Origin: a virus
Taxonomy: Duplodnaviria; Caudoviricetes
IMG/VR virus record: IMGVR_UViG_3300033067_000529
Coordinates: 1-24,615 of that record
Strand: one strand, 5' to 3'
Length of the DNA: 24,615 bases
Part shown: positions 3,504-24,615 of the stretch, piece by piece
How the letters are laid out: the number at the start of each line of letters is the position of its first letter
Position numbering within the stretch: position 1 is the first letter of the stretch
Position numbers and translations under genes: made by a program
Notes under the pieces: generated by a model
The model's input: only the letters and a program-made list of their open reading frames with translations
Database searches by the model: none
What the model was told of the DNA's origin: nothing

Positions 3504-3577
3504 CAGGATATTTTTTACTTACAGCTTTTTGGTCATTTACTATTTACGTTTTAAACCACCCTAATGATCTTCCGTGA
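3500..3577 (+). CDS. Possible 25-aa hydrophobic mini-protein (MTGYFLLTAFWSFTIYVLNHPNDLP)
   Basis: ATGA-coupled to the upstream stop and fills the gap to the next gene. It is very short. Confidence 0.3.
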   Translation: MTGYFLLTAFWSFTIYVLNHPNDLP

Positions 3578-8330: not shown

Positions 8331-8415
8331 GAATATATACAGGTTGAGCGTTGTGGGTATAGTATTAGCAATCCTATCTGGCATAGTTGATTATTTAATT
8401 ATATTTTATGCTTGA
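8320..8415 (+). CDS. Possible 31-aa single-TM protein (MEIKNIYRLSVVGIVLAILSGIVDYLIIFYA)
   Basis: Overlaps the portal stop and the next start, filling the gap. It contains a hydrophobic helix. Confidence 0.4.
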   Translation: MEIKNIYRLSVVGIVLAILSGIVDYLIIFYA

Positions 8416-8623
8416 AATTAAGCAAATAGTTGAAGAGGCTATCCCGCTAACGCCAGACTGTGAGATAAAGCGCACCGCCGAGTTTGAGCGCCGGGCGCAG
8501 TTGCGTATTCGTATCGAAGAGTTGTTGCGTGATAAATCGAAGCCGTATCAACCACCTATGGAGTATAAGGGATCAGGTTTTTCTGAAATACAGCCATCCA
8601 ACGGAGATATAACAATCAAATGA
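8408..8623 (+). CDS. Hypothetical protein
   Basis: 71-aa ORF, ATGA-coupled to the minor head gene. Confidence 0.6.
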   Translation: MLEIKQIVEEAIPLTPDCEIKRTAEFERRAQLRIRIEELLRDKSKPYQPPMEYKGSGFSEIQPSNGDITIK

Positions 8624-9471: not shown

Positions 9472-9618
9472 AACAGGCTCTGTTGCAGCAAGAAGCTATA
9501 TACATCATTCTGCATAACGATATTAACCACTTGCTGCCCGGCGGGAACATAGCCATCAACCCTTAGTGCCGGTTTGTAAGATATCCTCAGGTTTGCAGTA
9601 TCCCTACTTTTTCCTACC
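9472..9618 (-). ncRNA. Candidate structured ncRNA
   Basis: Lies downstream of a perfect minus-strand promoter. It has a long hairpin whose inner helices pair only on the minus strand (G-U pairs) and no credible ORF. Confidence 0.45.
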
Positions 9619-9622
9619 GATG

Positions 9623-9653
9623 CAAATTTATATCACTCTTCCCACCCCTCAAA
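9623..9653 (-). promoter_or_regulatory. Consensus Bacteroidota sigma-A promoter (antisense orientation)
   Basis: Minus strand TTTG (9653-9650), 19 nt, then TAAATTTG (9630-9623), an exact TTTG-N19-TAnnTTTG match. Confidence 0.75.
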
Positions 9654-9657
9654 AAAT

Positions 9658-9693
9658 AAATTTGCAACATTGTTGCATTTATTTATATCTTTA
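9658..9693 (+). promoter_or_regulatory. Palindromic operator-like site plus putative late promoter for the protease/MCP operon
   Basis: TGCAACA-T-TGTTGCA at 9663-9677. The 20-mer recurs at 13686. TATCTTTA -7-like box at 9686-9693. Confidence 0.55.
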
Positions 9694-9697
9694 TGGC

Positions 9698-10453
9698 GTG
9701 AAGCCAATTTTTTCCTACAAGTCCGGTATAATACCAGCAGCGATAAAAGATGTCGATGGTAAAAAAGGTATTGTTACAGGTTACTTCTCTTCATTTGACA
9801 ATGTTGATTCAGACGGTGATATTATTCGCAAAGGCGCTTTTACAAAATCTATACAGGAATGGGGCCCGGCATCAGCTACCCCACGTATTAAGCACTTGAT
9901 GAATCATAACTCTTCGCAGCCGTTGGGCAAGATCACAATGCTTTGCGAGGATACAAAAGGGCTTTGTTATGAATCACAGGTAGGTACTCACACGCTTGGC
10001 CAAGACTTTGTAAAGATGGTTGAATCAAATTTGATCACCGAACATAGTATCGGGTATCAAACAATGAAGCGTAACCAATTGCAGGATTTTGACGGGTATA
10101 TGAAAAATCCATCCGGCGGTTGGTATGAACTTACTGACCTGAAACTTTACGAGGGATCATCATTGACCGCATGGGGCGCAAATCCTAACACCCCGCTAAC
10201 CGGGATGAAAAAAGAAAATAAAGAAGAGGTATTGCAGGCGCTTATCAACAGGCAGAAAAACCTGGATAAGTTTTGCCGCAACACAACAGCGAGCGATGAG
10301 ACAGTGGAACTTCTTTTGATTGAATGTAAGCAATTAACTCAAAATATAATTGAACTCACCGAGCAGGTTAAAGACACCACTCCGCAAGAGGAAGGTAATT
10401 TGAGCGTATTTGCGCAAGGGATCACAAACTTTAAAAACTCATTAAAAAATTAA
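9698..10453 (+). CDS. HK97-family prohead protease (likely GTG start at 9698)
   Basis: GIVTGYFSSFDNVDSDGDII.KGAF, HLMNH, EHSIGY and LYEGS....GANP. The upstream extension to 9566 crosses promoter sequence. Confidence 0.9.
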   Translation: MKPIFSYKSGIIPAAIKDVDGKKGIVTGYFSSFDNVDSDGDIIRKGAFTKSIQEWGPASATPRIKHLMNHNSSQPLGKITMLCEDTKGLCYESQVGTHTLGQDFVKMVESNLITEHSIGYQTMKRNQLQDFDGYMKNPSGGWYELTDLKLYEGSSLTAWGANPNTPLTGMKKENKEEVLQALINRQKNLDKFCRNTTASDETVELLLIECKQLTQNIIELTEQVKDTTPQEEGNLSVFAQGITNFKNSLKN

Positions 10454-10455
10454 TA

Positions 10456-11709
10456 ATGGCAAAAAAACTGGATACCCCGGAAGCTATCGAAACGGAGCTG
10501 AAGGAAATCGAAACCGGCCTTATGACAAAGGCTGAGACCGCTATCGGTAAAGTTAAGACCGATATTGAAACCGAATTAAAAACCATCAAAGAAACTGTGG
10601 AAGCGATAAAAACGCTCCCGGCAGATTTTGACGCTGCAAAGGTTATGAAAGACCTTGCTGCAACGATTGAAGGGTTTGACGCTTTCCAGGCTAAATACCT
10701 TGGTGGCCAAAAATCAAAAAAAGACGTGTTATCGCTTAAAGATGCTATCGGTAAAGCGATGGAAGCAATGAGTGAGAATGATATCAAGGGAATGCTGAAC
10801 AACAAGAGCACAAATGTTATCGTTCCTTTGGGAGCCGTTGATATGTCAATCGACTGGAAAGAAGCAGAGCAGGATGAGAAAATGCAGCGTAAAACTGACA
10901 TGATCCTGTCCAACTCGCTTACCGGCACAACCGTGCTGACTTACAATCAGCGCCAGGCGATCATACCCGCTCAGAAATTCAACCTCCGTGAAGTAACGCC
11001 TACCGTTCAGAGCCCTACCGGCCAGTATGTAACGTACAGCGAGAATACCGGGGCGAGCAATAACATTGCCGCACAAACTGAAGGATCAAGCAAAGGAAAC
11101 AATGCTTATGCTTTCACCGCTGCTACGCTGACAAACCCGTACATTGCTGGTTACAGCCGTTTCAGTAAGCAGTTACTGAAATTCCTGCCGTTCATGCAGA
11201 ATACACTCAGCCGTATGTTGATGCGTGATTATTTCAAAAAGGAAAACGCCGCAGGCATGGTGGTACTGGCAACTGGTACCGGCCCGACAACAATGGGATC
11301 GAGCGCATCGGATGTGCTGCAGATCATTAACCTGATCGGTGGTTTTGCCAATACCGATTACAGCCCCTCATACGCACTGATCAACTGGTCATTGTGGAGC
11401 AGGCTGGTTGCTTTGACATTTGGTGCTGGTTACTATGCAGGCGCAGGCTTGGTAGTGTTCTCAGGAAACCAGTTAAGCATCGGTGGCATTCCGATCATCC
11501 CGGCGTCATGGGTAACAGCAAATAAGTGCTGCCTGGTTGATGCAGATTACCTGGAAAGGGTTGAAGTTGAAGGTTTAAACCTTGCTTTCTCTTATGAGGA
11601 TGCAGACAATTTCACAAAGAACCTGATTACAGCAAGGATCGAGTGTCAGACAGCATTCAACCTTATGCGTACAGACGCAGTTTGCTACGCTGATTTGGGA
11701 TCTTCATAA
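10456..11709 (+). CDS. Major capsid protein (HK97 fold, N-terminal delta domain)
   Basis: Follows the protease. Coiled-coil N-terminus, EGSSK, IAGYSRFSKQLL and DNFTKNLITARIECQ. A strong terminator follows. Confidence 0.92.
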   Translation: MAKKLDTPEAIETELKEIETGLMTKAETAIGKVKTDIETELKTIKETVEAIKTLPADFDAAKVMKDLAATIEGFDAFQAKYLGGQKSKKDVLSLKDAIGKAMEAMSENDIKGMLNNKSTNVIVPLGAVDMSIDWKEAEQDEKMQRKTDMILSNSLTGTTVLTYNQRQAIIPAQKFNLREVTPTVQSPTGQYVTYSENTGASNNIAAQTEGSSKGNNAYAFTAATLTNPYIAGYSRFSKQLLKFLPFMQNTLSRMLMRDYFKKENAAGMVVLATGTGPTTMGSSASDVLQIINLIGGFANTDYSPSYALINWSLWSRLVALTFGAGYYAGAGLVVFSGNQLSIGGIPIIPASWVTANKCCLVDADYLERVEVEGLNLAFSYEDADNFTKNLITARIECQTAFNLMRTDAVCYADLGSS

Positions 11710-11734
11710 TTGCTGATCGTTAGTTAATAATAAT

Positions 11735-11764
11735 GGCCCCGTCCTGTATTGGGCGGGGTTTTTT
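11735..11764 (+). terminator. Rho-independent terminator after MCP
   Basis: GGCCCCGTCC-TGTATT-GGGCGGGGTT followed by TTTT. Confidence 0.85.
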
Positions 11765-11775
11765 AATTCTTTGCA

Positions 11776-12375
11776 ATGTCTATACTATTTCAAGGATCAG
11801 ATACTTTAAATCACCAGGTGCCATATAACGCTACCCTTGACCGGGTATTTACCGACGGCACAGTAACAGAGCCAGTTACACTACAACAGGCAAAAGACTG
11901 GTGCAAGATTGATACCGGTACAGTTGATGACACTATTGTTTCCTACCTGATCACTACCGCCCGGCAACAATGTGAGGATTTTACAGGTCTATCCCTTATA
12001 CCACGGACAGTTGAAGTTGTTATAAATAATGGATGCGGCGGTATATTCCTGCCGTATGGCCCTTTCAAAAGTCTCACCAGTATAAAAGATAGCAACGGGG
12101 ATGATATACCCACAGATCAATACAAATTATCAGGTACACAGTTTCCGCAGTTATTATACCCGAAATGGTATAATATGACGCTTGTGTATGTAGCCGGTTA
12201 CGGATCTACCGAATGGCCTTTACCACAGGAAATAAAAACCGCTATACTTGAGCAGGTATTTTACCTGTATCAAAACAGAGGAGAAACTGCTTTGGCCTCA
12301 AGGGATGGATCTGTAGTTATGACAACATTATCACCGCAGGCAAGATCAACCTTAAACAGAATAAAGCGTGTTTAA
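11776..12375 (+). CDS. Head-tail connector (gp6-like)
   Basis: EPVTLQQAKDWCKID..DD..V.YLITTARQQCE and P.EIKTAIL...YLYQNRG. Confidence 0.88.
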   Translation: MSILFQGSDTLNHQVPYNATLDRVFTDGTVTEPVTLQQAKDWCKIDTGTVDDTIVSYLITTARQQCEDFTGLSLIPRTVEVVINNGCGGIFLPYGPFKSLTSIKDSNGDDIPTDQYKLSGTQFPQLLYPKWYNMTLVYVAGYGSTEWPLPQEIKTAILEQVFYLYQNRGETALASRDGSVVMTTLSPQARSTLNRIKRV

Positions 12376-12413
12376 TCCATCTGAACTTAATAGGAGAATA
12401 TCTGCAAGGGCTT
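12356..12413 (+). repeat. 58-bp perfect inverted repeat, copy 1
   Basis: ACAGAATAAAGCGTGTTTAATCCATCTGAACTTAATAGGAGAATATCTGCAAGGGCTT is the reverse complement of 15010-15067. Confidence 0.95.
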
Positions 12414-12709
12414 ACGATTTCACTAAAGCCACAGGAGGCGGGCTAATACCTGTATTGGTTGAAACTATTGATACCTGGGCAAAGATTGAGCAGTTAAGCG
12501 GATCTACCGATACAACACAATCTCAGCAGCAGAGCAATGCACAGTACCGGGTTACAATCAGGTACAGGGCGCAGATAAACGAGAACTGGTTATTTGTTTA
12601 TGAGGGATTGGTCTTGAAGATATCGCAACTGCAGGTTGATAATCCGGCGTATAAAAGATATTGGATAGCGTATTGCACAACAACAAACCAACTATCTGAC
12701 TGGTCATAA
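12368..12709 (+). CDS. Head closure / head-tail adaptor (SPP1 gp16-like)
   Basis: GTG start. LNRRI, TWAKIE and YRVTIRYR motifs, plus synteny. Confidence 0.85.
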   Translation: MFNPSELNRRISARAYDFTKATGGGLIPVLVETIDTWAKIEQLSGSTDTTQSQQQSNAQYRVTIRYRAQINENWLFVYEGLVLKISQLQVDNPAYKRYWIAYCTTTNQLSDWS

Positions 12710-13251
12710 TGGGAGCGATAACATTCGATATAAAAGGACTTGATGCAACACTGGCTGAAATAAAAGCCTACCCACAGGATATTGAGAGGATAATTAATAA
12801 TGAGTTCAAAGCGTTTGGGGTGCAGGTGGTAAATGACGCAAGGGTTAACGCACCGGTAAATGAAGGTTTATTGAGAGAGAGTATAAGCTCACAGGTTACA
12901 CCTCTACAGGTTTCAATATCGGTTAATGTTGATTATGCAGCATACTTGGAGTTCGGTACAAAGTCATTCGCAGCGGCCTATGTAGCTACGCTACCACAAG
13001 ATTGGCAAACATTCGCAGCGCAGTATAAAGGATCATCGGGGGGGACGTTTCAGGAGTTGGTTATGAGGATAAAGAAGTGGGTACAATTAAAAGGTTTGGC
13101 GAGTGGTAAGGATATCGACAGTGCAGCTTATCTGATTGCACGAAAAATAGTGAGAGACGGCATCCGCCCTCACCCATACTTATACCCGGCCTTTGAAAAG
13201 AATAAAATTGAATTGATTAAAAACTTAAAAGCACAACTGAATGCTAAGTAG
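12709..13251 (+). CDS. HK97 gp10-family neck protein
   Basis: APVNEGLLRESI, YAAYLEFGT and PHPYLYPAF. Confidence 0.88.
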   Translation: MGAITFDIKGLDATLAEIKAYPQDIERIINNEFKAFGVQVVNDARVNAPVNEGLLRESISSQVTPLQVSISVNVDYAAYLEFGTKSFAAAYVATLPQDWQTFAAQYKGSSGGTFQELVMRIKKWVQLKGLASGKDIDSAAYLIARKIVRDGIRPHPYLYPAFEKNKIELIKNLKAQLNAK

Positions 13252-13684
13252 TAACCTGGAACTACGGATGGCTTACAACACAGCCTTAAGTACTATACAG
13301 TACAACGGATCACCGGTGCCTGTGTATTGGCAGCAGTTACCAACTACGGTGCAGGCGGGGTTATATATCATTTTCGGGCAGATCAGGAATAATGACAACA
13401 GCAATAAAACATCGGCAGTTACCCAAACATCTGTAACGGTATCTGTATTTACAAACAGCTTAAAGTATAACGATGGGGTAGCGGTGGAGGCGGTAGCAAA
13501 TGAGGTAATGAACCGGATACTGCCGACAACTACATTCAAACTGCCGTTGAATAGCCAGTTTTTCAATATCGTAACCACCACTTTGCAGTCTGACAACACG
13601 CAGGACTTCAGCCAGGTGAACCAAAACGTGTATATAGACCGGATTTTAACATTCAGCCATTTGATTGCGCAGAATGTGTCATAA
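13241..13684 (+). CDS. Tail completion/terminator protein (DUF3168-like)
   Basis: Position between gp10 and the tube gene, size, and the motifs YIIFGQ and VTVSVFT. Confidence 0.7.
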   Translation: MLSSNLELRMAYNTALSTIQYNGSPVPVYWQQLPTTVQAGLYIIFGQIRNNDNSNKTSAVTQTSVTVSVFTNSLKYNDGVAVEAVANEVMNRILPTTTFKLPLNSQFFNIVTTTLQSDNTQDFSQVNQNVYIDRILTFSHLIAQNVS

Positions 13685-13685
13685 A

Positions 13686-13722
13686 AAATTTGCAACATTG
13701 TTACAAAAAATATTTATCTTAC
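13686..13722 (+). promoter_or_regulatory. Second copy of the operator-like palindrome / putative tail-tube promoter
   Basis: AAATTTGCAACATTGTTACA at 13686-13705 is 19/20 identical to 9658-9677. TATCTTAC at 13715-13722. Confidence 0.55.
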
Positions 13723-13740
13723 AATCTAAAATAATACAAC

Positions 13741-14178
13741 ATGGGAACTCGTAGACCATTAAACGGTAATGATATTGTACTTGCGCTCGATCCTGCGGGT
13801 GGTACTAATTATACATTGCTTGTGTGTTTGGAATCAAACTCAATAGCCAGCACCACAGCGGTTATTGATGCAAGCTCAAAGTGCGGCCCGTACAAACTGC
13901 CGGGTATAACCGATAACAAGGTAGCCCTTGCACTTGTGGATTGGGTTGATACCACGAACACAGAGTTAAGCTCGTACGATCTATTTCAGTTACAACAGGC
14001 TAAAACTACCGTTGGTTGGAAGTACGGTAAAGTATCTCCCGCTGCCGGTGACGTTACTTATACCGGTGTTGGTTTTTTAGCCAACTGGAATAATGTATCA
14101 GCACAGAACCAGGCGGTGAAAACTACCTGCGACCTTGAAGTACAGGGCACAATAACAGCAACAAGAACCGGATCGTAA
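13741..14178 (+). CDS. Major tail tube protein
   Basis: 145 aa with LNGNDIVL, IDASSKC, YTGVGFL and a C-terminal QGTIT, in the TP901-1/lambda-like tube pattern. Synteny agrees. Confidence 0.8.
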   Translation: MGTRRPLNGNDIVLALDPAGGTNYTLLVCLESNSIASTTAVIDASSKCGPYKLPGITDNKVALALVDWVDTTNTELSSYDLFQLQQAKTTVGWKYGKVSPAAGDVTYTGVGFLANWNNVSAQNQAVKTTCDLEVQGTITATRTGS

Positions 14179-14179
14179 T

Positions 14180-14515
14180 ATGAGCTACATACAAGTTGAA
14201 ATCGGTGGCAAATTGCGTGGGTTGAAGTTCAACCAGGGCGCTCATGCGGAGATAGCTGCTATCGTCGGCGAAAGTACTAACGCTGTATTTGCCGGGTATG
14301 CTGTAGTTTATGGCGGGTTGGTTGCAAATTCTTATATCAAGCGTGAGGAGCCTGATTTTACCTTCGAGGATGTTTGCGATTGGTCAGAGAAAATATCAAT
14401 CGAGGATATGACAGCGATATCAGAGTGTTATAAATCAACGCTTGCATTCCTTCAGGATGTACCAGCGGAGCCTGAGGATGATAAAAAAAAACTACCGGAC
14501 GAGAATATAAGTTAA
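14180..14515 (+). CDS. Tail assembly chaperone (G)
   Basis: Lies between the tube gene and TMP. Begins IEIGGKLRGLKF and has an acidic-KKK tail over an A9 run. Confidence 0.8.
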   Translation: MSYIQVEIGGKLRGLKFNQGAHAEIAAIVGESTNAVFAGYAVVYGGLVANSYIKREEPDFTFEDVCDWSEKISIEDMTAISECYKSTLAFLQDVPAEPEDDKKKLPDENIS

Positions 14516-14799
14516 GGTGTTTGGAGATCGCTTTGGGTATGCTTGGCTGGTCTCCGTTTGAATATCATACAAGTAGCCCATGTGAGTTTTATTATGCTTG
14601 CAAGGGCTATTTTAGTAAAGAGGAAAACCGAATGCTGATTATGCGTAAGGTAGCTTTTGCGGCGGTTGCTCCTTATATAAATGATGGCGATTTTGAAAGT
14701 TTTTGGCCTTACGGTAATAACGAAATTAAAACACCATCATTCGCAGAAACACCAAAGGAAATGATTGCAGATATTTTAAAAGCCTGGAATATTAAATGA
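14491..14799 (+). CDS. Tail assembly chaperone GT extension (-1 frameshift product)
   Basis: The -1 frame from the A9 run reads TTGREYKLRCLEIALGMLGWSPFEY... without a stop until 14799. Confidence 0.75.
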   Translation, partial: TTGREYKLRCLEIALGMLGWSPFEYHTSSPCEFYYACKGYFSKEENRMLIMRKVAFAAVAPYINDGDFESFWPYGNNEIKTPSFAETPKEMIADILKAWNIK

Positions 14800-16391
14800 G
14801 CAATGAACCATTAAAAATAATTGTCGGGGCGGATATAAAGGAAGCCGAAGCGGGGTTAAAAGTTGTCCAGGCTGAGCTCGGTAAGACCGCTATTGCTGCA
14901 CAGAAAGCTGATTCATCGCTCGATGGTATTGGTAATGGTTTTGATGGTGTGGGCGCAAAGTCAAAACAGGCTGCAACTTCGATGGACGGGCTTAGCAAAA
15001 CAACATCAAAAGCCCTTGCAGATATTCTCCTATTAAGTTCAGATGGATTAAACACGCTTTATTCTGTAGCCGCTGCATTTGAAGGGTTAGGCTCACAGTT
15101 ATTACAGGGTGGCATATTAATAGCTATCCCAATAATTATCGCCGGTTTATCTGAGCTCGGAGATGCTTTATTCGGAGTTTCCCAGCAACAGAAAGCGTTT
15201 AATGATGTACTTGAATCTTCATCCAAAAGTTTTATAGAAGCTAATACTGCAATAAGCGAATTACGCATACAGGGCGAGCTTTTAAGTAAAGGGATAGGAG
15301 ATCAGGACGCCTTTTTAAAACACTACAACGAAACGCTTGGTAAAACAATCGGAGAAACTGATAACCTGGCAACAGCCGAAAAGAATTTAGTAAAGTTTGG
15401 TGATAAGTATATACAATTAATGTTTCTTAAAGCTGTCGCAAATAATGCGTTTGCGAAGTCTGGTCAATTAGTGTTTGAATCACTTGCTTTGCAACAGCAG
15501 GGTGGTGATATACCTGAGTGGGCTCTAAAGATAAGATTAAAAGAATTACAAGAGCAAATACAAATTCTAAATAATTTAGCGGTAAATGCTCAAAAACTTG
15601 CAGCAGTTGTATCAAATGATTTACCTCAGAAAGTTGGCGCAGGACTATCCGGACTAAATGGCGGTAAGGGTTTTGATGTTGATGTTGATGTTAAAATAGT
15701 ACCAAAGGTTAAAATAAAAAAACAGGATGTAAAAGATTTTGAATATAAGTATAAAGCATCGCTTGCAGATTCAATTACATCAGAGAATACTAAAGAACCT
15801 TTTGAACCAGAGATAGTAATAAAATCTCACCTGAAATTTGAAAATCCGTTTGAAGAAATACAGAAAAATGCTATCGCTACAAATGAAATAATAAAAAAGT
15901 CTTTTATATCATCATTTCAATCAATTGGGGAAAGTATTGCGGATGCGGTTTCGGGTAAAGGTAATATTTTTGGTAATATATTCTCAGGGATATTTAAAGC
16001 GCTTGGTGCAGGGCTTAAGCAACTCGGGGCATTCGCTATTGCTACCAGTAAGTTGATCATTGGTTTGAAAGCATCAATCGGTACATCACTTGGTATCGCA
16101 GGTGGTATCGCTTTAATTGCGCTCGGTTCAGTGATCAGCGCAGCGGCCTCAAAGCTAACACCTAAGTTCGCCATCGGTACCCGAGGTGCCCCCGGCGGAT
16201 CGACTTTGGTTGGTGAACGTGGCCCTGAGCTCCTCACCCTCCCCCGAGGCGCATCAATTACACCTAACGCACAACTGCGGGCATCAAACCCATTTGAAGC
16301 ACTTGGCACATTGCAATTTGAAATACAGGGTACAAAATTGGTAACAGTACTTAACCGGGCTCAGGCTCAAAACTCAAGAAACGCCTGGTAA
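14796..16391 (+). CDS. Tape measure protein
   Basis: LKIIVGADIK N-terminus, Ala/Gly-rich helices and the C-terminal FAIGT...LVGERGPEL motif. It follows the chaperones. Confidence 0.85.
   Translation: MSNEPLKIIVGADIKEAEAGLKVVQAELGKTAIAAQKADSSLDGIGNGFDGVGAKSKQAATSMDGLSKTTSKALADILLLSSDGLNTLYSVAAAFEGLGSQLLQGGILIAIPIIIAGLSELGDALFGVSQQQKAFNDVLESSSKSFIEANTAISELRIQGELLSKGIGDQDAFLKHYNETLGKTIGETDNLATAEKNLVKFGDKYIQLMFLKAVANNAFAKSGQLVFESLALQQQGGDIPEWALKIRLKELQEQIQILNNLAVNAQKLAAVVSNDLPQKVGAGLSGLNGGKGFDVDVDVKIVPKVKIKKQDVKDFEYKYKASLADSITSENTKEPFEPEIVIKSHLKFENPFEEIQKNAIATNEIIKKSFISSFQSIGESIADAVSGKGNIFGNIFSGIFKALGAGLKQLGAFAIATSKLIIGLKASIGTSLGIAGGIALIALGSVISAAASKLTPKFAIGTRGAPGGSTLVGERGPELLTLPRGASITPNAQLRASNPFEALGTLQFEIQGTKLVTVLNRAQAQNSRNAW
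15010..15067 (-). repeat. 58-bp perfect inverted repeat, copy 2 (inside TMP)
   Basis: Reverse complement of 12356-12413. It explains why the minus-strand ORF at 15055 begins MFNPSELNRRISARA. Confidence 0.95.
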
Positions 16392-18385
16392 TGGCATACG
16401 GACTAAAATATCAAGCTGAATTTAAAAACATACCGCTGCCGGGTGGCACAGAGTTGCCGTATCGCGTAGAGATACTTCAAAAAGATTACGCCGGGGGTTT
16501 TTCAACAATCACACTTTCAGGTACACCATGCTTACCGTCCTACCAAACGGATGATATCAGGGCTCCGATAGCAGGCTTTGGCGGTACTCTGAGTATTATT
16601 AATTCAGGGCCGATACCACTGACTTCTTTTTATTCAGTGAATGACGATGAGTGGCAGGTGATATTTTACCAGGGTTCAAATGTATTGGGTGTATTCTACG
16701 TAATACAGGACGATAGTAACGAATTAATGGTTGATTTCGCCCATGATATTACTATCCAGTATAATGATAATCTCGGTCTACTTAAAGATGTTGCGTTCAA
16801 CAAAAACACCACAGTAATTACAGATTATTACGCACGAAATTCACTCGCAGCATGTATTCATCAGTGTCTTAAAAACACGAACCTTTCGCTTGTTACGAAT
16901 GTATTTGTGAATATGTGGGAGAATAGAATGAGCGAGGCTGACAGTTTATTTCCGCAGACTTATATTGACCTGCAAACATTTATTTCAGGTGAGGTTTTTA
17001 TGAGTTGTTACGATGTACTTACCAGGATACTTGACCGGTTCAACTGCTCATTGTTTCAAGCAGGTGGCACGTGGAACATTGTAAGGTGGGATGAACTTAG
17101 GGGCTTAACAACAATACATTCGTTCATCTATAATTCAGATTGGGTGCTCACCGGTTCAGGCTTGCTCGATACACCGTTTGTTGCATCTGCGAATATACCA
17201 GGCGCTACAGTGCCTGATTCCGTACCTGAGTTTGGACTGCGTAGGCAGGGAATAAGACCGTTTCTGTTTGACAAGGAAACTTTTAACTACGTACAACCGA
17301 AATACTTACTAAAAAACTATGATCTGCAAACATTAGGTGCGCTGATCAGGACTTACGTAGTTGATGTGCGTACGTTCTCTGAGTATGTTGCTATCGGTTG
17401 GCTCGGTGGTTGGACAACAAACACCGCAGAGAGATTTATACGGGTGGTTACGGATACTTTAGGTAATGAGCTTGACCGGTATTTGGTAGTAAGAAATACA
17501 ACTACCGATTCAGCACGTTCTGTATTGGGTACTCCGTTTGAAGTGAGCAAGGGTGATAAGGTTAAATTCTCTTTTTCTGTTCGTACAAATATTTCACAGG
17601 GCGGATCATTGACAATAATTTTTGCGCTTGGTTTATACAACGGCACTACCGTTCGTTATGTTGATGAGAATCCTGCGGGTAATGGTGCGTGGATACCGAA
17701 TATTGGATTTAATTACACCTACCCCTCAGGTGATAACACGGATATAATACATAGTGTCGAAATACCCTCAGGTCAAATACCGTTTGACGGGCTTATTTAT
17801 CCGTACCTGGCTGAAGTAACACAAGGCACTCAGAACTCCTCCAAAGAAACCCACTACAAGGATATTCGTATGGAATATACCCCATACATCAATGACAGTA
17901 CGAAGATAATTGGCCATATTCATAAAGACATTCAGACTGACCCCGCAGCAGCAGACACAAAGAACAATGAGGATATTACCGTGTTTATGGATGACAGTCC
18001 TCGTAATTCAATACAGGGTACATTGTTTTTATCCACGTTTACTGGGCTAATACAGAATCGTACAGCATTATGGCACAGGGCCGGTTACACTGAGGCGCTA
18101 AAGATCGGGCAGATAATGACAACCGAAACCCTGCAATGGAGATCTATACCACGAACAAAGCTTGAAGGAGATTTCAGAGGACTTGTGCAATCGAATATAC
18201 ATTTGAGTCGGCTGACGGTGCTTAAATTTACATATCTTAATCCGTTACGATTTATCTTTGGTATCTTAGAGTATAATTACAGAGAGAATAAGTGGCACTG
18301 TACGGCGTGGGAATTAACCGGGCAGAATGATGAACCGGCAGTACCGAATGATTATACGTTCACTTATATTTATGCAACACAATGA
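16391..18385 (+). CDS. Tail tip / baseplate hub-like structural protein
   Basis: 664-aa beta-rich protein directly after TMP. MAYGLKY start and SCYDVL..IL..FNC.LFQ..G.W.I motif. Confidence 0.65.
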   Translation: MAYGLKYQAEFKNIPLPGGTELPYRVEILQKDYAGGFSTITLSGTPCLPSYQTDDIRAPIAGFGGTLSIINSGPIPLTSFYSVNDDEWQVIFYQGSNVLGVFYVIQDDSNELMVDFAHDITIQYNDNLGLLKDVAFNKNTTVITDYYARNSLAACIHQCLKNTNLSLVTNVFVNMWENRMSEADSLFPQTYIDLQTFISGEVFMSCYDVLTRILDRFNCSLFQAGGTWNIVRWDELRGLTTIHSFIYNSDWVLTGSGLLDTPFVASANIPGATVPDSVPEFGLRRQGIRPFLFDKETFNYVQPKYLLKNYDLQTLGALIRTYVVDVRTFSEYVAIGWLGGWTTNTAERFIRVVTDTLGNELDRYLVVRNTTTDSARSVLGTPFEVSKGDKVKFSFSVRTNISQGGSLTIIFALGLYNGTTVRYVDENPAGNGAWIPNIGFNYTYPSGDNTDIIHSVEIPSGQIPFDGLIYPYLAEVTQGTQNSSKETHYKDIRMEYTPYINDSTKIIGHIHKDIQTDPAAADTKNNEDITVFMDDSPRNSIQGTLFLSTFTGLIQNRTALWHRAGYTEALKIGQIMTTETLQWRSIPRTKLEGDFRGLVQSNIHLSRLTVLKFTYLNPLRFIFGILEYNYRENKWHCTAWELTGQNDEPAVPNDYTFTYIYATQ

Positions 18386-19056
18386 GTTTAATCAACGGCA
18401 TAAACACAATACTTGCGTTCTTTGAGAACGGGCAGTGGTACCCTTATGCCTGCGCCCGTAGTTCGACAGTGCAGGTTGATGTAGAAACCATTGAGACAAG
18501 CGTATCCGGTTCCGGTACCTGGCAAACAAATATGCCAACAAAGCGTAAATTCTCGGGCAATTTCGAGGGGCTTGTCGCATTGAGTAATGTTGCAGTTCTC
18601 AGTGCTGCGGATCTTACGGCCCGGATGATAGCCGGTACAGAGATGTTATTCAGGCACCAGGTAGTGGCTCAGGATGGATCTGTTTATACAGAACAGGGTT
18701 ATATATACTTCACCGGTAGGCCATTAACTTCAAGTTTTGATAATGTAGTAACCTTCAGTATGAACTTCATCGGCAATGGCGAATTAACACAAGTTTTCAC
18801 ACCAATAGTACAACCTACTCCGATTATGTACCGATTTGAATATACCGCTTCAGGCGGTGAGTCCGGCTTCAGTGATGCCGCGCTCATAAATAAAGACATT
18901 CAGCACGTCAGCAAGGATGGTATCGAAAATGCAAAGATTGTCACCGGTGCACCGGGCAGCAAAGAGGTAAGATATAATGCATCAGTCGGGCAGTTTACGT
19001 GGGCTGTTGAATTTGAACCTGGTGAGATCGCTGTCATTAACTATCAAAATTTATAA
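18382..19056 (+). CDS. Second tail-tube-like protein with C-terminal extension
   Basis: INGINTIL, ACARSSTV...ETIETS..GSGTW, FSGNFEGLV and TFSMNFIGNGEL fit the TP901-1-like tube pattern, plus an extra ~80-aa domain. Confidence 0.6.
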   Translation: MSLINGINTILAFFENGQWYPYACARSSTVQVDVETIETSVSGSGTWQTNMPTKRKFSGNFEGLVALSNVAVLSAADLTARMIAGTEMLFRHQVVAQDGSVYTEQGYIYFTGRPLTSSFDNVVTFSMNFIGNGELTQVFTPIVQPTPIMYRFEYTASGGESGFSDAALINKDIQHVSKDGIENAKIVTGAPGSKEVRYNASVGQFTWAVEFEPGEIAVINYQNL

Positions 19057-19058
19057 CT

Positions 19059-21653
19059 ATGAAATGGATATTGTTTTTTTTAGTACTGATAACGGGTTCT
19101 GCGGTGGCGCAAACACCCATCACATATACACCATTTAATGGCGGCTACCAGTATATGTATCTGAAAGCAGATAGCGGCTTAAAAGTACCATATATTGATA
19201 CAGCAATAAGGCGCGGCGGGGTTCGTCCTGGTTCAATCGTATGCCGACCAGCAGATAGTTTATTCTACGGTTGGAATGGCCGTAAATGGGCTGTAATGGG
19301 AGCAGATGTTGCCAGCCTGATCACACTTATAAACCAGAAAGTAGATAGCGTTACGGTCTCCGGTGATACCTTATACTACTGGAAACTTGGTGTTTCATAC
19401 GGATATGTATTACCTACTACGGGTTGGAAACTTACCGGGAATACCGGGTGCGATGGATGTATATTCGGTACTACTCAGCCATACCCAGTTAGGACATACA
19501 CAAATAACGTACAAAGAGAAATCATTGATACCAATGGAAACCACGGTATTCATAATGCGAATCCAGATGCAATACTTGATATTGTTTCAACTACAAGTGG
19601 GGTATTGATACCACGTATGACAACTACACAGCGTAATGCCATCAGCAGTCCACCTACGGCGCTGTTGATATACAATACTACCAATGATGAGTTTAACTAC
19701 TACAACGGTTCATCATGGGTACTTATTGAACCAGGTACCAATGTGAACGTATATAATTCCGATGGTACACTTTCAAGTACCCGGACACTTACCAGGGGTG
19801 GGTATTCATTCTCAATTACAGATGGTTTGAATAGTCCGGGGTTCTTTGCAAATGGTACATGGGCCAGCACTCATTACAGGAAAACAGGGAATGAATTTTA
19901 TTCGGCTTTTGTGGCAAAACAGGATAGTGCCGTGATATATGCTGAAGGAATACCCACGATAATCATAAAAGATTCAGCAATAAGAATACCGTATATCCCG
20001 GATGGCGCAGGGAATAAGGCTGTAAGGTGGAATAGAAGTACACAGACATTAGTTCTGGCTGATACAACAGCAACCTCCACCCCTACACTTCAGCAGGTAT
20101 TCAACACAGAAACAGGCGGTAGCGTTTTGACAAAGAATGATACCATCGCTGGTGGCGGCTTTAACTGGCGGATGATTAATATGGGTATTACATCTATTGC
20201 CCAGAACGCTAAAACAGCGGTTACCGGGGCAAACGGTACGGCCAATGTTTCGCCGTTGGTTGTTACCGGAGGAGCGGGAGGAGCAACATCATACTCAACA
20301 GGGACGGTTATCGGTGGGGCAGCGGGAGAGATAACTATCACTGGAGGTACGGGAGGCGCAATCACAGGAACACCAACAACGGGAATAGGCGGCACAGGTG
20401 GAGGGTTAACATTACTGGCTGGCGATGGTGGCGCAGGTACAACCAATGGCGGTGTAGGCGGTTATGTAGAGGTTCAGGGCGGCACAGGAGGTAATGGTAC
20501 AAGCGGAGGAACTGCCGGGTATTCGGCATTAAAAGGAGGGAATGCCGGGAGTACTGGAAATGCGGGAGGTGGTAATGTTTTTATTGTGCCGGGAATAGGA
20601 AATGGTACAGGCAAAAGCGGTACAACTTTTATAGGAGTTTCCCCATCTTATACAATCAGTGGAAATACCGTTATCGGTAATACAAGCGACAATTACACCA
20701 ACTTATTGCAGGTTAATGGCTCAGTCAATATCAATAAAGATTCCCTTGCAATAACAACCGGGAAGAAGTGGAAGGTAATGATTGATACCGCTACGGGTAA
20801 CTTGGTGAGGGATAGTACGACTGGGGTAACAGGTACAGGTACTAATAACTATATTTCAAAATGGAATAACGCAGGAGGAACTACTCTTGGTAACTCACAG
20901 ATATTTGATAACGGTACTAATGTGGGGTTTAATACGGCAACACCTTCTTTCCTTTTAGATGTTAATGGTGTAGCAAGAATAAGAGGAACGAATATGCTTG
21001 TATTTGGTGATGCAAGTGGTACATATAAGTACACAAATATTTACGGAGAAACAGGACAGAACGGTATTGTTTACAATGCTTATGCTCAACATACTTTTAC
21101 AACCGGAACAAATGCTGCAGGTGCTGGATCAACAAAATTTAGATTAACCACATCGGATGCAAACTTCGCTACTAACGTAATCGCCACTACTGATAATACT
21201 TACGATATTGGAGCAAGCGGAGCAACCCGTTTTAGAGATTTATTCTTAGGTCGTAACGCTGTCATGGGTGGTAGTTTAACAATTAACGGTGCAATTTCAT
21301 TAGGCGCATCTCAATACATACAATGGTCTGGTAGGTCTTATATACAGAGTAACGCAGATACTAAGCTTACACTTTACGGTAATTCGGGAAACTTCAGTGA
21401 ATTACAATTAGGTGGAATATCGTCTTTTTATCCTGAATTAAGAGTAAACGGCACAGGCATAGATTTTAAACTCGCTGATAATAGTGCTTATACAGGCATA
21501 CAATCACTATACGATAGATTCGGAAGCGGAAGCCCTGAAAGTGTTGTTACTGCTCCCGTAGGCACAACTTATCATAGAACTGATGGTGGTGCAGGAACTT
21601 CGCTTTACGTTAAAGAATCAGGAACAGGTAATACCGGATGGGTAGCTAAATAA
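19059..21653 (+). CDS. Tail fibre/spike-like protein with N-terminal Sec signal peptide
   Basis: MKWILFFLVLITGSAVA|Q signal. LDIVSTTSGVLIPRMTTTQRNAI module, Gly-rich repeats, and C-terminal GSGSPESVVTAPVG..Y.RTDGGAGTSLYVKESGTGNTGWVAK typical of fibre/spike ends. Confidence 0.7.
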   Translation: MKWILFFLVLITGSAVAQTPITYTPFNGGYQYMYLKADSGLKVPYIDTAIRRGGVRPGSIVCRPADSLFYGWNGRKWAVMGADVASLITLINQKVDSVTVSGDTLYYWKLGVSYGYVLPTTGWKLTGNTGCDGCIFGTTQPYPVRTYTNNVQREIIDTNGNHGIHNANPDAILDIVSTTSGVLIPRMTTTQRNAISSPPTALLIYNTTNDEFNYYNGSSWVLIEPGTNVNVYNSDGTLSSTRTLTRGGYSFSITDGLNSPGFFANGTWASTHYRKTGNEFYSAFVAKQDSAVIYAEGIPTIIIKDSAIRIPYIPDGAGNKAVRWNRSTQTLVLADTTATSTPTLQQVFNTETGGSVLTKNDTIAGGGFNWRMINMGITSIAQNAKTAVTGANGTANVSPLVVTGGAGGATSYSTGTVIGGAAGEITITGGTGGAITGTPTTGIGGTGGGLTLLAGDGGAGTTNGGVGGYVEVQGGTGGNGTSGGTAGYSALKGGNAGSTGNAGGGNVFIVPGIGNGTGKSGTTFIGVSPSYTISGNTVIGNTSDNYTNLLQVNGSVNINKDSLAITTGKKWKVMIDTATGNLVRDSTTGVTGTGTNNYISKWNNAGGTTLGNSQIFDNGTNVGFNTATPSFLLDVNGVARIRGTNMLVFGDASGTYKYTNIYGETGQNGIVYNAYAQHTFTTGTNAAGAGSTKFRLTTSDANFATNVIATTDNTYDIGASGATRFRDLFLGRNAVMGGSLTINGAISLGASQYIQWSGRSYIQSNADTKLTLYGNSGNFSELQLGGISSFYPELRVNGTGIDFKLADNSAYTGIQSLYDRFGSGSPESVVTAPVGTTYHRTDGGAGTSLYVKESGTGNTGWVAK

Positions 21654-21722
21654 CTTAAACACTAACCCTCCTTCAATATTTAAAAAAAAGGACTAAGGAA
21701 ACAGGATAATAAAAACTAAATA

Positions 21723-21977
21723 ATGGAACCACAGACAGACAGGGAATGGATAATGCAGGTAGACGGTAAGGTTGACCGGATGTGCGAGGCGGTAGAACGC
21801 CTTGCTGAAGCAGTTGAGAAATTTGAAACAACAAAATACCAGGATCACGAAAATAGAATAGCTGCTTTAGAGAAAAAAGAGAATGAAAGGAATGGTATGT
21901 ATAAATTTTTTATCGCAATAGTTACTGCTTTAGGCGCAATATCAACGTACATTTTAATACGAATAAATTCAAAATAA
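21723..21977 (+). CDS. Coiled-coil plus C-terminal TM protein (XhlA-like / holin-associated)
   Basis: HENRIAALE coiled coil followed by one TM helix, at the start of the lysis cassette. Confidence 0.55.
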   Translation: MEPQTDREWIMQVDGKVDRMCEAVERLAEAVEKFETTKYQDHENRIAALEKKENERNGMYKFFIAIVTALGAISTYILIRINSK

Positions 21978-22189
21978 TGGACTACACCCCGTTGTATATC
22001 GGTACATGCGCAATGATTATTTTGGCAATAACGATTATTCTTATCACCCTGTACTCTGCTCATCAGATTAAAGGGTTCAAAGAATTCGCCAATAGTCGCG
22101 ATGAGCATTATATGAATCGTATAGACGGGCTTGAAGCCATCATGCGCACAGAATTCAAAGCAATGGTAGAAACACTTAAAAAATTATAA
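21977..22189 (+). CDS. Single-TM membrane protein
   Basis: N-terminal hydrophobic helix, TAATG-coupled to the upstream gene. Confidence 0.55.
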   Translation: MDYTPLYIGTCAMIILAITIILITLYSAHQIKGFKEFANSRDEHYMNRIDGLEAIMRTEFKAMVETLKKL

Positions 22190-22191
22190 CC

Positions 22192-22614
22192 ATGTTTACT
22201 TATTTAATCGCCGGGCTTCTCGGCCTATTATTCGTAACCCTTGCAAAAGCAAGGTCATTGAAAAAAGATTTTGCCGTAGCAAACCAGCCATTCGTCTGGG
22301 CGAAGTTCTGGGGTGGTGAATCCATCGGTATTGCCATGTCAGTCATCGTCATTGTATTGATGGCGCTTACAATAAACGAATGGCTTCATATCAAGCCGGT
22401 ACTTGAAGATTATGTAACGATAATATTCGCCCTTGGCGGCGCAATCGGATCCTGGGCCTTTATGTTATTCCTTGGTAGTTCAAAGAAGTACATCCGCCGG
22501 ATCGTGGATGAAAAGACCAACATCGCCGACGGGGTAGGCAGTCTTAAAGGATCTTCGTATACAGCCCCCAATGACGCTGAACAACAAAACAGGACACACC
22601 ATGATAACGCCTAA
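22192..22614 (+). CDS. Holin-like protein (3 predicted TM helices)
   Basis: Three hydrophobic segments and a charged C-tail (KKYIRRIVDEK), upstream of the spanin and lysin. Confidence 0.6.
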   Translation: MFTYLIAGLLGLLFVTLAKARSLKKDFAVANQPFVWAKFWGGESIGIAMSVIVIVLMALTINEWLHIKPVLEDYVTIIFALGGAIGSWAFMLFLGSSKKYIRRIVDEKTNIADGVGSLKGSSYTAPNDAEQQNRTHHDNA

Positions 22615-23134
22615 AATGTTACGCTGGATCCTGGTATTGCTTGCCGGGTTCCTGATACTTTGCGCCATACTGCTTTCCTGTACTTCTGCAAAGAAGATGG
22701 TAGAGAAAGCCTACGCAAAGGACCCTAATGCTGTGGCAGAGATTGCCAGGGATAAATTTCCGTGTACGGTCCTGTTAAAGACCGATACCACTACAATGGT
22801 ACGGGATAGCGTAGTATTTATCGACTGTCCGGAGCAACCGATACAACCGGGGCAGATATTCCATGATACCCTAATAAATGTGGTTTCTGGCGGTGTCAGG
22901 ACTGTCCGGGTGCCGGTACACCTACCGATAGAGATTAAGTATGTCAACCGGTATTTTGAGGATAGCGCTAAAATACGATTAATCACCGCTGACCGGGACA
23001 AGTGGGCCGGTAAGGTTGACCGGCTTGAAGGTAGCCTGGCATGGTACCGTAAATGGTTCTGGTGGTTATTAGTGCTTCTTATTGGCTCACTTGGTTGGAA
23101 TTTTAGGAAACTTATATTTAAAACTATTGCATGA
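22601..23134 (+). CDS. Putative unimolecular spanin (lipoprotein with C-terminal TM)
   Basis: Lipobox LLSC after a hydrophobic signal and C-terminal TM WFWWLLVLLIGSLGW followed by basic residues. The start at 22601 is likelier than 22571. Confidence 0.6.
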   Translation: MITPKMLRWILVLLAGFLILCAILLSCTSAKKMVEKAYAKDPNAVAEIARDKFPCTVLLKTDTTTMVRDSVVFIDCPEQPIQPGQIFHDTLINVVSGGVRTVRVPVHLPIEIKYVNRYFEDSAKIRLITADRDKWAGKVDRLEGSLAWYRKWFWWLLVLLIGSLGWNFRKLIFKTIA

Positions 23135-23718
23135 AATCTTACAAAGACATATCCTTCCCAGGCAGCACCTTCCCGGATGATCCGTACCGGCATATACCAG
23201 TAAAAATTGATCAGCATATACTTGACCAGTATATACCAGCCATGCCACCGATGGCAAAAGGTCTTAAGTTATTACTTATCGCCATGACTGATATGGAAGG
23301 ATTCAGGCCTGGTTCAAAGTCTTACCGGACAAATAACCCGGGTAATGTAGGAAATACCGACAGTGGGGCTACAAATGGATTCCCAACGCTATCTGCTGGA
23401 ATCACAGCACAAGCAGCTTTTATTCAGGCAATAGCTGCGGGAAAAAAGAAATACTACCCGTTGGGTAAACAGGTAGTATTAAAGCCGGACTGGAGTGAAG
23501 AGGTTGATAATAATAAGAAATTATACGGCCGACCAGACGGCTGGCTGCCAGGTTACTCATTTACATACGTAGGTCAACTTGATCAACTTTTAAAGATCTA
23601 CAGCACCGGCGCCCGGTTTACAAATGTGTATGTAAATCAAATTGTATCGTACTTCGCTGATAATGGTATTCTGATAACACCTACAAGCACCCTGGCTGAA
23701 ATCATTGCAATTCAATAG
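23131..23718 (+). CDS. Putative endolysin, lysozyme-like fold
   Basis: MEGF..GSKSYRTNNPGNV and FPTLSAG motifs. It is the last gene of the lysis cassette. Confidence 0.6.
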   Translation: MKSYKDISFPGSTFPDDPYRHIPVKIDQHILDQYIPAMPPMAKGLKLLLIAMTDMEGFRPGSKSYRTNNPGNVGNTDSGATNGFPTLSAGITAQAAFIQAIAAGKKKYYPLGKQVVLKPDWSEEVDNNKKLYGRPDGWLPGYSFTYVGQLDQLLKIYSTGARFTNVYVNQIVSYFADNGILITPTSTLAEIIAIQ

Positions 23719-23769
23719 CCTCACCCCTTAATCACCATCACCTGTTTTCCTTTTTTGGAGGGGGAATAT

Positions 23770-23797
23770 AAAAAACGGGGACACTTTCGCTGTCCCC
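23770..23797 (-). terminator. Rho-independent terminator of the tmRNA gene
   Basis: Minus strand GGGGACA-GCGAAAG-TGTCCCC-G-TTTTTT. Confidence 0.85.
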
Positions 23798-23806
23798 AAT
23801 CTCGTG

Positions 23807-23854
23807 TTATGCAACCGCTTTTAAAGCAGGTGTAAACATTGGCACAATTTTGCC
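23807..23854 (-). other. tmRNA tag reading frame (A)GKIVPMFTPALKAVA*
   Basis: GGC resume codon after ATAACAAAC, 15 codons and TAA, with a hydrophobic Ala-terminal end. Confidence 0.75.
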
Positions 23855-24042
23855 GTTTGTTATTTCTGATAATCTATTATTATCTACTACTTGCTGTCAA
23901 ATCCGGTCAACCCCATTTATGCCCCGAAGGGCAACTGTACTAAAGCGACAGGTTAGCTTTTAAATGGATTCTGTGGAGTTGAGGGGAATCGAACCCCTGT
24001 CCAAACAAGCGTCTAATAATCGTCAAACAATTATCATTATCG

Positions 24043-24070
24043 TAAAATTAAGAACTTTTTATGAGTACAA
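24043..24070 (-). promoter_or_regulatory. Putative promoter of the tmRNA
   Basis: TTG (24070-24068), 17 nt, then TAATTTTA (24050-24043), the same -7 variant as before terS. Confidence 0.5.
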
Positions 24071-24164
24071 TTTGTTTTCCTTTCATCTCTGCTCCCTGTG
24101 ATTGAATTTTCCCCAGAACATCAACTATCAATGCCTCTTTGTGGTTAAGGGTTATTTTTTGCAT
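24048..24164 (-). CDS. Possible 38-aa protein (MQKITLNHKEALIVDVLGKIQSQGAEMKGKQIVLIKSS)
   Basis: ATG with A-rich upstream context, filling the gap before the tmRNA. Confidence 0.4.
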   Translation of the reverse strand: MQKITLNHKEALIVDVLGKIQSQGAEMKGKQIVLIKSS

Positions 24165-24220
24165 GGCTCTTTATTTTACCCACTATGCTTTATTGCAAGT
24201 GGGGAGTGAGGGGAATTATT

Positions 24221-24529
24221 TTATTCAGTTTGAGCGATTAGCGATAAGTCCTGACCACAATATTGTATCAGGTTACAAATCTGCGGACGGCTATCAATGT
24301 ATTTCATCAATGTGCAGTCTTTAGAATGGAACCAACTTGTACCATACCACGGCTGATAATGCTCCTCACAAACCTTGCAATCGCATTCAACCTTTCCGAT
24401 TTTATGCCGCCACTTGAAATCAAATCGAACAATAATTTTATACCCGTTATCAACCCAGTTCTTAGGTTTTCGTTTTGACAATTTATTGAAGTTGCCGCTT
24501 ATGTGCGCCCCGTTAAAATATGCTCCCAT
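24221..24529 (-). CDS. Hypothetical protein with Cys/His cluster (CDCKVC..H..C)
   Basis: 102-aa ORF with an A-rich start context and possible Zn ligands. Confidence 0.6.
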   Translation of the reverse strand: MGAYFNGAHISGNFNKLSKRKPKNWVDNGYKIIVRFDFKWRHKIGKVECDCKVCEEHYQPWYGTSWFHSKDCTLMKYIDSRPQICNLIQYCGQDLSLIAQTE

Positions 24530-24534
24530 AACTT

Positions 24535-24615
24535 TTAGTTTTTACTTCTGTTTATGTATTGGGTTATAAGTTTATTAATATCAATACTATTATGATATTC
24601 CCAATTATCCCACCA
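24535..24615 (-). CDS. C-terminal fragment of an upstream minus-strand gene
   Basis: Open from the window edge (WWDNWEYHNSIDINKLITQYINRSKN*), stopping 5 nt before the next ATG. Confidence 0.4.
   Translation of the reverse strand, partial: WWDNWEYHNSIDINKLITQYINRSKN

Follow-up and report, generated by a model that had tools for sequence, protein, structure and literature searches.

Gene order at the tmRNA locus

The window, i.e. the whole stretch of DNA analyzed here, is an entire linear IMG/VR virus record of 24.6 kb with an estimated completeness of 81%. Run X1 contained identical long contigs over all 30 bins of positions 4700–24615, and run X14 from another study contained an identical 348-nt contig over 23750–24097; the assembly of the window holds. 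A tmRNA gene lies on the minus strand, 560 bases from the contig end. Between 24050 and 23770 the tmRNA 3′ half, an intervening segment, the 5′ half, the tag frame and a terminator-like hairpin follow each other, and re-reading of the sequence confirmed the order and the coordinates that an initial annotation had given for these parts. The following features were assigned.

2263–23718, plus strand: phage genes for packaging, head, connector and tail (terminase, portal, protease, capsid, tape measure); the last open reading frames, unassigned and presumably of a lysis region, run convergently towards the tmRNA gene
24043–24050, minus strand: possible Bacteroidota-type -7 promoter element TAATTTTA, inferred, with one mismatch to TAnnTTTG
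23974–24037, minus strand: tmRNA 3′ half, predicted as acceptor piece of about 64 nt without its CCA, with an inferred 5′ end
24004–24036, minus strand: 3′ strands of helix 2 (24036–24030, 24020–24015, 24009–24004), from the comparison of relatives
23982–24002, minus strand: GGAC (24002–23999) and T arm (23998–23982; 5 bp, 7-nt loop), from the Rfam match and T-stem covariation
23974–23981, minus strand: 3′ strand of the acceptor stem (23981–23975, with U70 of G3-U70) and discriminator A (23974)
23915–23973, minus strand: intervening segment of 59 nt, predicted to be excised, with a 5-bp C(UUCG)G hairpin (23933–23920)
23896–23914, minus strand: start of the coding piece with the 5′ strand of the acceptor stem (23914–23908) and a short D-loop analogue, 3-nt linker
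23867–23895, minus strand: 5′ strands of helix 2 (23895–23890, 23884–23879, 23873–23867), from the comparison of relatives
23855–23866, minus strand: A-rich linker of 12 nt at the usual site of pseudoknot 1, with an A at -4 from the resume codon
23807–23854, minus strand: tag frame GKIVPMFTPALKAVA-stop, 15 codons; an in-frame start one codon earlier is possible
23770–23798, minus strand: intrinsic-terminator-like hairpin (G+C, 23798–23776) with a U run behind it, immediately downstream of the stop codon

A 7-bp acceptor stem with G3-U70, the alanine identity pair, and the discriminator A had been described for this gene and was found again, as was the absence of an encoded CCA, the A being followed by CAG. 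The D-loop analogue ends with GAC. The T arm has a canonical loop and is preceded by GGAC, the region contacted by SmpB. No region with helix 5 and pseudoknots 2–4 is present between the tag stop codon and the terminator-like hairpin.

Covariance models and gene callers

The Rfam model tmRNA_permuted (RF04321) matched 24035–23807 of the minus strand with 61.7 bits (E-value of 1.2e-10, cutoff 47), in agreement with the earlier identification as a permuted tmRNA. The best match among the clade models of the clan was beta_tmRNA (RF01850) with 46.1 bits, below its cutoff of 84, and neither alpha_tmRNA (RF01849) nor cyano_tmRNA (RF01851) reached the family cutoff. None of these three models reached its cutoff for any of 12 relatives scanned. 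The window gene belongs to RF04321 but to none of the three clade models. ARAGORN, which the initial annotation had proposed as a check, called no tmRNA in the window; at the loci of 32 relatives it called a permuted tmRNA in 24. The folding z-score of the whole region was only -2.65. A BLASTN comparison of the region with 50,697 phage records gave matches of T-arm size only, and no record covered 80% of it.

A family of related genes and its covariation

Relatives were searched with a pattern combining the permuted order with the D-loop type of the window gene. As G3-U70, the discriminator and the D-loop motif were fixed in this pattern, their counts are not independent evidence. Matches were obtained on 31 viral contigs and, with the pattern one base looser, in 119 listed metagenome stretches, out of about 150 estimated. 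Among 185,579 prokaryote genomes a single match was found, on a 5.8-kb contig of an Aequorivita MAG, whose open reading frames resemble a phage head protease and capsid by our own reading of the translations. After removal of duplicates and truncated hits 118 distinct full-length members were retained: the window, 28 viral, 1 genome and 88 metagenome sequences, with a viral origin presumed for each metagenome contig. Of two other viral scans, the first gave 15 loci, 13 of which were permuted tmRNAs of other, longer types and not close; requiring a T arm removed about half of the 48 loci of the second, which were chance matches or one-piece genes. The rarity of permuted phage tmRNAs that the initial annotation had implied was not borne out, the family being large and already annotated or listed.

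All 7 acceptor pairs were kept in each of the 118 members; position 5 showed six pair types and position 6 three, both positions being left free by the pattern. GGAC, which the pattern did not contain, was found in 115 of 118 members. The CCA is encoded in 6 of 118, and the intervening segment varies in length from 39 to 106 nt. For 31 aligned members (acceptor stem, T stem, inner helix 2) 94.1% of the cells were paired with a covariation of 0.474, compared to 77.4% and 0.148 for the shuffled control of the same alignment; the observed level was reached in none of 500 shuffles, and a sliding control yielded 45–54% paired cells. The T stem of these members was 99.4% paired with double changes in 3 of 5 pairs. 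The homologs show the compensatory pairing whose absence would have spoken against the initial annotation. A variant with 96% identity over 23802–24062 (runs X16 and X19) carries ten shared differences, none of them in the acceptor stem, T arm or tag. Within the UUCG hairpin of the intervening segment, six of the ten make up three compensatory pairs; the remaining ones are one A-U to G-U change in helix 2 and three loop changes. Judged by these comparisons, the window gene is an intact, circularly permuted tmRNA gene under selection at the RNA level.

In 8 of the 118 members a whole tRNA-Ala(TGC) gene was observed within the intervening segment (L105:4026–4100; L208, L222, L230, L260, L278, L288, L302). 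One permuted gene with a tRNA-Ala at this place is mentioned by Nawrocki et al. (2025; PMC11915505); it is nominally archaeal and may stem from a misbinned phage. Another member is followed by a Hatchet ribozyme (L045:4751–4840, 61.4 bits, cutoff 51), about 75 bases downstream on the same strand.

Helix 2

A three-segment helix 2 between the two pieces had been proposed before. The helix itself stood, but not its middle register (TAATAAT/ATTATTA) nor the 7 bp of the first segment. In the closest relative, L280, the former register breaks 3 of 7 pairs, while a register shifted by three bases (23884–23879 with 24015–24020) keeps 6 of 6, two of them by double changes; the middle segment was reassigned for this reason. 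In the first segment, L280 has C-A in place of the outer U-G pair, leaving 6 bp. A local hairpin favored by energy (23884–23868) was rejected, since it is broken in L280.

Among five close relatives 93.5% of the cells of the 19 pairs of the three segments were paired, a level seen in none of 500 shuffles, and six pairs showed double changes, which occurred in all three segments. Cognate duplexes of 34 members had a mean energy of -15.1 kcal/mol compared to -9.4 for non-cognate ones. The duplex of the window gene (-15.6 kcal/mol) was equaled by 1 of 66 non-cognate duplexes and 7 of 200 shuffles. When the two predicted pieces were co-folded, the acceptor stem formed with a probability of about 1 and helix 2 with at most 0.04, local hairpins being preferred. 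The gene is A+U-rich, and helix 2 is not favored by energy alone; its support is therefore the comparison with relatives, and help from SmpB would be needed. On that comparison, a long helix 2 leaving the tRNA-like domain is predicted for the window gene.

The tag and the missing pseudoknots

The previously proposed tag frame was supported by an open frame with stop codon, an A at -4 upstream, a small hydrophobic C-terminus, and coding-type variation in the family. The tag of the window gene, GKIVPMFTPALKAVA, has the commonest length of the family (15 aa). In 47 frames of 15 codons the third codon positions were most variable (1.42 bits versus 1.06 and 1.12), and the tag of L280 differs from that of the window by two synonymous changes and one I to V exchange. 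Conserved residues are K2, V3, I4, P10, L11, and R/K12. An AA or VA end was found in 81 of 92 assigned tags, a count that is partly circular, since the rule assigned tags only with an A at -4 and with A, V or S as the last residue. Under this rule 26 of 118 members had no tag, 17 of which belong to a group with much longer frames (L105, L194, L208, L226, and some 13 loci like them; the four frames translated to their end have 37 codons). The tags of this subgroup still end with AMAA or AMAV. Some members carry host-like tags of 10 aa.

The distance between the end of the D-loop motif and the resume codon was 41 nt in the window and 37–46 nt in 33 of 34 members, as determined with a rule that searched only 36–47 nt and mis-picked one frame. 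The corresponding distance was 64–109 nt in 62 Bacteroidota host genes and 63–88 nt in 7 beta-type phage genes (ARAGORN). With only 12 nt from helix 2 to the resume codon, pseudoknot 1 cannot form, and with the terminator starting 9 nt after the stop codon none of the four pseudoknots fits. Neither a pseudoknot nor a hairpin is present between helix 2 and the resume codon. The two predicted mature pieces total about 210 nt. Pseudoknot 1 of E. coli is described as replaceable by an unrelated sequence or a hairpin (PMC2481249, PMC3968760); a stable structure at its site was required according to Tanner et al., as cited in a 2026 preprint (PMC13692277). The pseudoknot-free linker is the most interesting trait of the family and at the same time the main doubt about its activity. 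Plausibly, the open two-piece topology makes the pseudoknot ring unnecessary.

The phage and its probable host group

No integrase was found among the 31 window ORFs scanned (record 81% complete), and no tRNA gene in the 24.6-kb record. The initial annotation had noted that smpB is absent from the window, which agrees with our scan of the 81% complete record; likewise, none of 32 carrier records, 7 of which have a completeness of at least 90%, contained SmpB. A Shine-Dalgarno-like motif preceded none of 29 window genes. Genes of Bacteroidota typically lack this motif, and its absence fits a Bacteroidota host. The terminase of the window is 57% identical to a gene on a 4.1-Mb contig found in 1 of 401 Bacteroidota genomes, and the named carriers of the family infect Chryseobacterium (MA9V-3) and Maribacter (Panino). 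The window phage probably infects Bacteroidia (Bacteroidota). No tmRNA reached the cutoff within 60 kb around the chromosomal terminase relative, nor near relatives of the last plus-strand ORF, of whose 11 loci 6 were scanned. Beside this terminase relative (G220; L192:6100–12307), three group II intron-like copies stand in tandem at a spacing of about 2.2 kb. Within the window, many related contigs branch at about 9680–9693.

Promoter and cassette edges

The consensus of the Bacteroidota -7 promoter element is TAnnTTTG. The promoter assigned by the initial annotation holds as far as a possible element is present at the expected place, but TAATTTTA (24050–24043) is only a near match with one mismatch. 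Its position matches that of the exact TAnnTTTG boxes of 31 of the 118 members. The exact motif was clearly enriched (shuffles mean 6.0, maximum 12), the TAATTTTA-type variant weakly (20 of 118; shuffles mean 11.4, maximum 18). A boxA-like sequence stands at the place of the promoter motif (window 24062–24050) in 5 of 118 members, including L280 and L218 (shuffles mean 0.44); some family copies may thus be transcribed from upstream. Elsewhere in the window, exact TAnnTTTG motifs lie back to back on both strands at 9630–9665, near the start of the head protease gene. Contigs covering just the tmRNA gene in two runs of presumed RNA were considered as a sign of expression; they extend 20–25 bases above the predicted start. 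For this reason, and because the same runs hold tail and lysis pieces of related phages at similar depth, they carry no weight in this respect.

The similarity of the window to L280 and to the X16 variant ends at 24062, and the carriers of the family gene range from about 40 to more than 170 kb. The tmRNA cassette looks mobile from these comparisons. One contig of run X1 joins 23767 to 24118 with 9 other letters and without the cassette; its short side has 25 bases, and it gives a faint hint that related phages lack the cassette. An 11-nt direct repeat flanking the cassette (23743–23753, 24073–24083) may be due to chance.

Origin of the permutation

The tRNA-like domain was compared with 63 Bacteroidota hosts, 7 beta-type phage genes, 4 one-piece phage genes, and E. 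coli, a set without alphaproteobacterial or cyanobacterial hosts. The nearest sequences outside the family were ssrA genes of the core Bacteroidia-like group with identities of 0.81, 0.78, and 0.78 over 27 positions unfixed by the pattern. The resemblance of the 5′ end to Bacteroidota ssrA, pointed out in the initial annotation, extends to a Bacteroidia-like tRNA domain, with a nearest identity of 0.81 in a set consisting mostly of Bacteroidota. Under the same restriction of the set, the nearest class of 34 members was core Bacteroidia-like for 22, other members of the phylum for 9 and beta-type for 3, and the mean identities barely separate the classes (0.52 versus 0.49). A one-base offset in helix 2a occurred in 27 of 34 family members and in 16 of 23 core Bacteroidia-like hosts; among other members of the phylum it was seen in 3 of 40, and among beta-type genes in 0 of 7. 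In 143 of 151 Bacteroidota genomes a full-length one-piece ssrA scored over the cutoff; among the other 8, no permuted gene was found in the 5 searched.

On these sequence comparisons, the permutation probably arose independently of the other two-piece lineages, with considerable room for doubt. A speculative route is the imprecise excision of an element integrated at ssrA, which would have placed a duplicated 3′ fragment before the captured 5′ part. One-piece tmRNA genes with a Bacteroidia-like D loop were observed on four viral contigs (L024, L030, L031, L032) and could be intermediates or host flanks.

Relation to known systems

GenBank/RefSeq annotate family members in phages MA9V-3 (PV245944.1) and Panino (PP540027.1) and in the crAss-like cr7_1 (NC_055895.1), labeled only "transfer-messenger RNA SsrA." They share with the window gene the order of parts, an intervening segment of 39–70 nt and the 3-nt D-loop linker, and have 41–45 nt from the D loop to the resume codon, similar tags and RF04321 scores of 62–66 bits; by our own measures they belong to the same family. 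These phages have genomes of 77–104 kb, while the window record comprises 24.6 kb (81% complete) and lacks tRNA genes. In its accessible parts, the Panino paper mentions one SsrA gene and never the word "permuted" (PMC11590407), and the North Sea phage paper merely counts tmRNAs.

The two-piece tmRNAs of Alphaproteobacteria, some Betaproteobacteria and marine Cyanobacteria (RF01849, RF01850, RF01851; merged in RF04321) have the same permuted order, tRNA-like domain and tag frame. The window's family differs from them in being found on phages and not as a chromosomal gene, and from the beta-type phage genes by its 37–46 nt before the resume codon instead of 63–88. Like the window gene, the tmRNAs of Melnitz and other marine phages are phage-encoded and two-piece. 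Using ARAGORN, Buchholz et al. (2022) classified 53 of 133 unique phage tmRNAs as two-piece, and their Table S1 marks Cellulophaga phi4:1 and 13 crAss phages as "Permuted" (PMC9004378). As far as accessible, their text covers the alpha, beta/gamma and cyano lineages, the Bacteroidota entries being table rows without analysis. Among these "Permuted" phages, the sequence of cr7_1 was compared and places it in the family. Nawrocki et al. (2025) list 11,946 permuted and 79 phage sequences, and the accessible part of their paper names only the three classic clades (PMC11915505).

Core Bacteroidia one-piece ssrA shares the 3-nt linker, TTTGAC, the offset of helix 2a (16 of 23) and tags starting with G. 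It differs in being one-piece, with 346–402 nt, 64–109 nt before the resume codon and tags of mostly 9–10 aa. Like the family, Bacteroidota host genes are mostly without an encoded CCA (present in only 12 of 62). The minimal tmRNAs of phage DS6A, mitochondria and some plastids share the extreme reduction, with the tag frame absent there and kept here; that of DS6A is phage-borne as well. In the literature searched, which largely excludes subscription papers, no paper describing a Bacteroidota-phage two-piece lineage or its missing pseudoknot 1 was found. Apparently the family has been cataloged by software and not analyzed as a lineage in print. The initial annotation had held that a cataloged family would remove the novelty of the gene and not its identification. 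The identification stands, and the novelty is limited by the GenBank annotation and the "Permuted" rows of the supplement.

Proposed function

With a probability of roughly 60%, we consider the window gene a working trans-translation RNA which borrows RNase P, 3′-trimming, CCA addition, AlaRS, EF-Tu and SmpB from the host and keeps ribosomes in circulation during infection. From one precursor, the tRNA-processing enzymes of the host (RNase P, 3′-trimming) would release an acceptor piece of about 67 nt and a coding piece of about 140 nt, the acceptor piece then receiving its CCA from the host and alanine from the host AlaRS. Assisted by host SmpB and EF-Tu, ribosomes stuck on broken mRNA would be freed and the tag (A)GKIVPMFTPALKAVA added to the stalled product. 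Most likely, the benefit would be that translation continues during infection when the tmRNA or mRNA of the host is cleaved or in short supply, with the gene carried as an accessory cassette of the phage. The proposed processing, charging and tagging steps would follow established tmRNA biology; we infer the host group, expression, and benefit of the window gene.

Alternatively, the gene might re-route ribosome rescue instead of backing it up. The phage tmRNA could out-compete the host tmRNA for SmpB, and its longer, basic and hydrophobic tag could be read by a different protease or adaptor or be degraded more slowly, shifting the fate of rescued proteins and tmRNA-dependent regulation towards the phage. 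Host tags have mostly 9–10 aa and are polar (GENNYALAA-like), while family tags typically have 15 aa with the conserved residues given above, and their conserved middle suggests a specific reader. However, AA/VA is an ordinary degron end (E. coli ClpX binds LAA and ClpA ALA; PMC3968760), and some members have host-like 10-aa tags. Such re-routing, which is compatible with a working rescue RNA rather than exclusive, appears unlikely.

Still less likely is a decoy or inhibitor, whose tRNA-like domain would titrate SmpB or absorb host anti-tmRNA nucleases without tagging being its job. A DS6A form consisting of the tRNA-like domain only was reported to inhibit endogenous tmRNA (PMC11915505, PMC4131195), host systems predicted to bind tmRNA are described (CoCoNuTs; PMC10542128), and the lack of pseudoknot 1 would be in line with this role. 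For a pure decoy, however, the conserved open tag frame with stop codon, coding-type variation and degron-like end would be superfluous.

We regard it as improbable that the gene is of host origin or marks an integration site, either as an att site or as a copy replacing a host ssrA that integration had disrupted. Integration commonly takes place at tmRNA genes (PMC11915505), replacement after integration is proposed in the Panino paper (PMC11590407), the gene lies close to the contig end, and a relative of the terminase sits in a bacterial chromosome. On the other hand, ssrA is one-piece in nearly all Bacteroidota genomes, with no permuted gene in those searched among the exceptions, and the only genome match of the pattern lies on a contig whose head genes look phage-like. 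In every one of the 118 members, covariation links the 3′ strand to the 5′ strand of the same gene, and the window ORFs scanned in the incomplete record contain no integrase. That the gene is a decayed relic, or that tRNA-like fragments lie together by chance, as the missing ARAGORN call and the modest z-score might suggest, is already contradicted by the covariation counts, and the Rfam score, the compensatory changes in the near-identical variant and the identical 348-nt contig of an independent run leave it hardly any likelihood.

The most far-reaching picture would be a fourth independent tmRNA permutation, arisen in phages from Bacteroidia ssrA, which shed all four pseudoknots, spreads as a cassette of about 350 bp among unrelated Bacteroidota phages and yields an active trans-translation RNA of about 210 nt with its own conserved degron, shielding or re-routing rescue during infection. 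We hold this combination as a whole only tentatively, at somewhat less than even odds. If active, the working rescue RNA would be a natural experiment in which trans-translation needs only a tRNA-like domain, helix 2, a 12-nt linker and a tag, bearing directly on the unsettled role of pseudoknot 1. If independently derived, its phage-borne origin would join the three known bacterial origins of two-piece tmRNA. Since the family occurs in cultured phage-host pairs (Maribacter Panino, Chryseobacterium MA9V-3), the question why phages encode tmRNA becomes testable in Bacteroidota. The window gene is one more member of this family, notable for the small size of its genome and the lack of tRNA genes in it. 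In this genome the genes of the small and the large terminase are separated by a region (window 2964–5423) in which two glycosyltransferase-like genes, one polysaccharide deacetylase-like gene, and one methyltransferase-like gene were observed.
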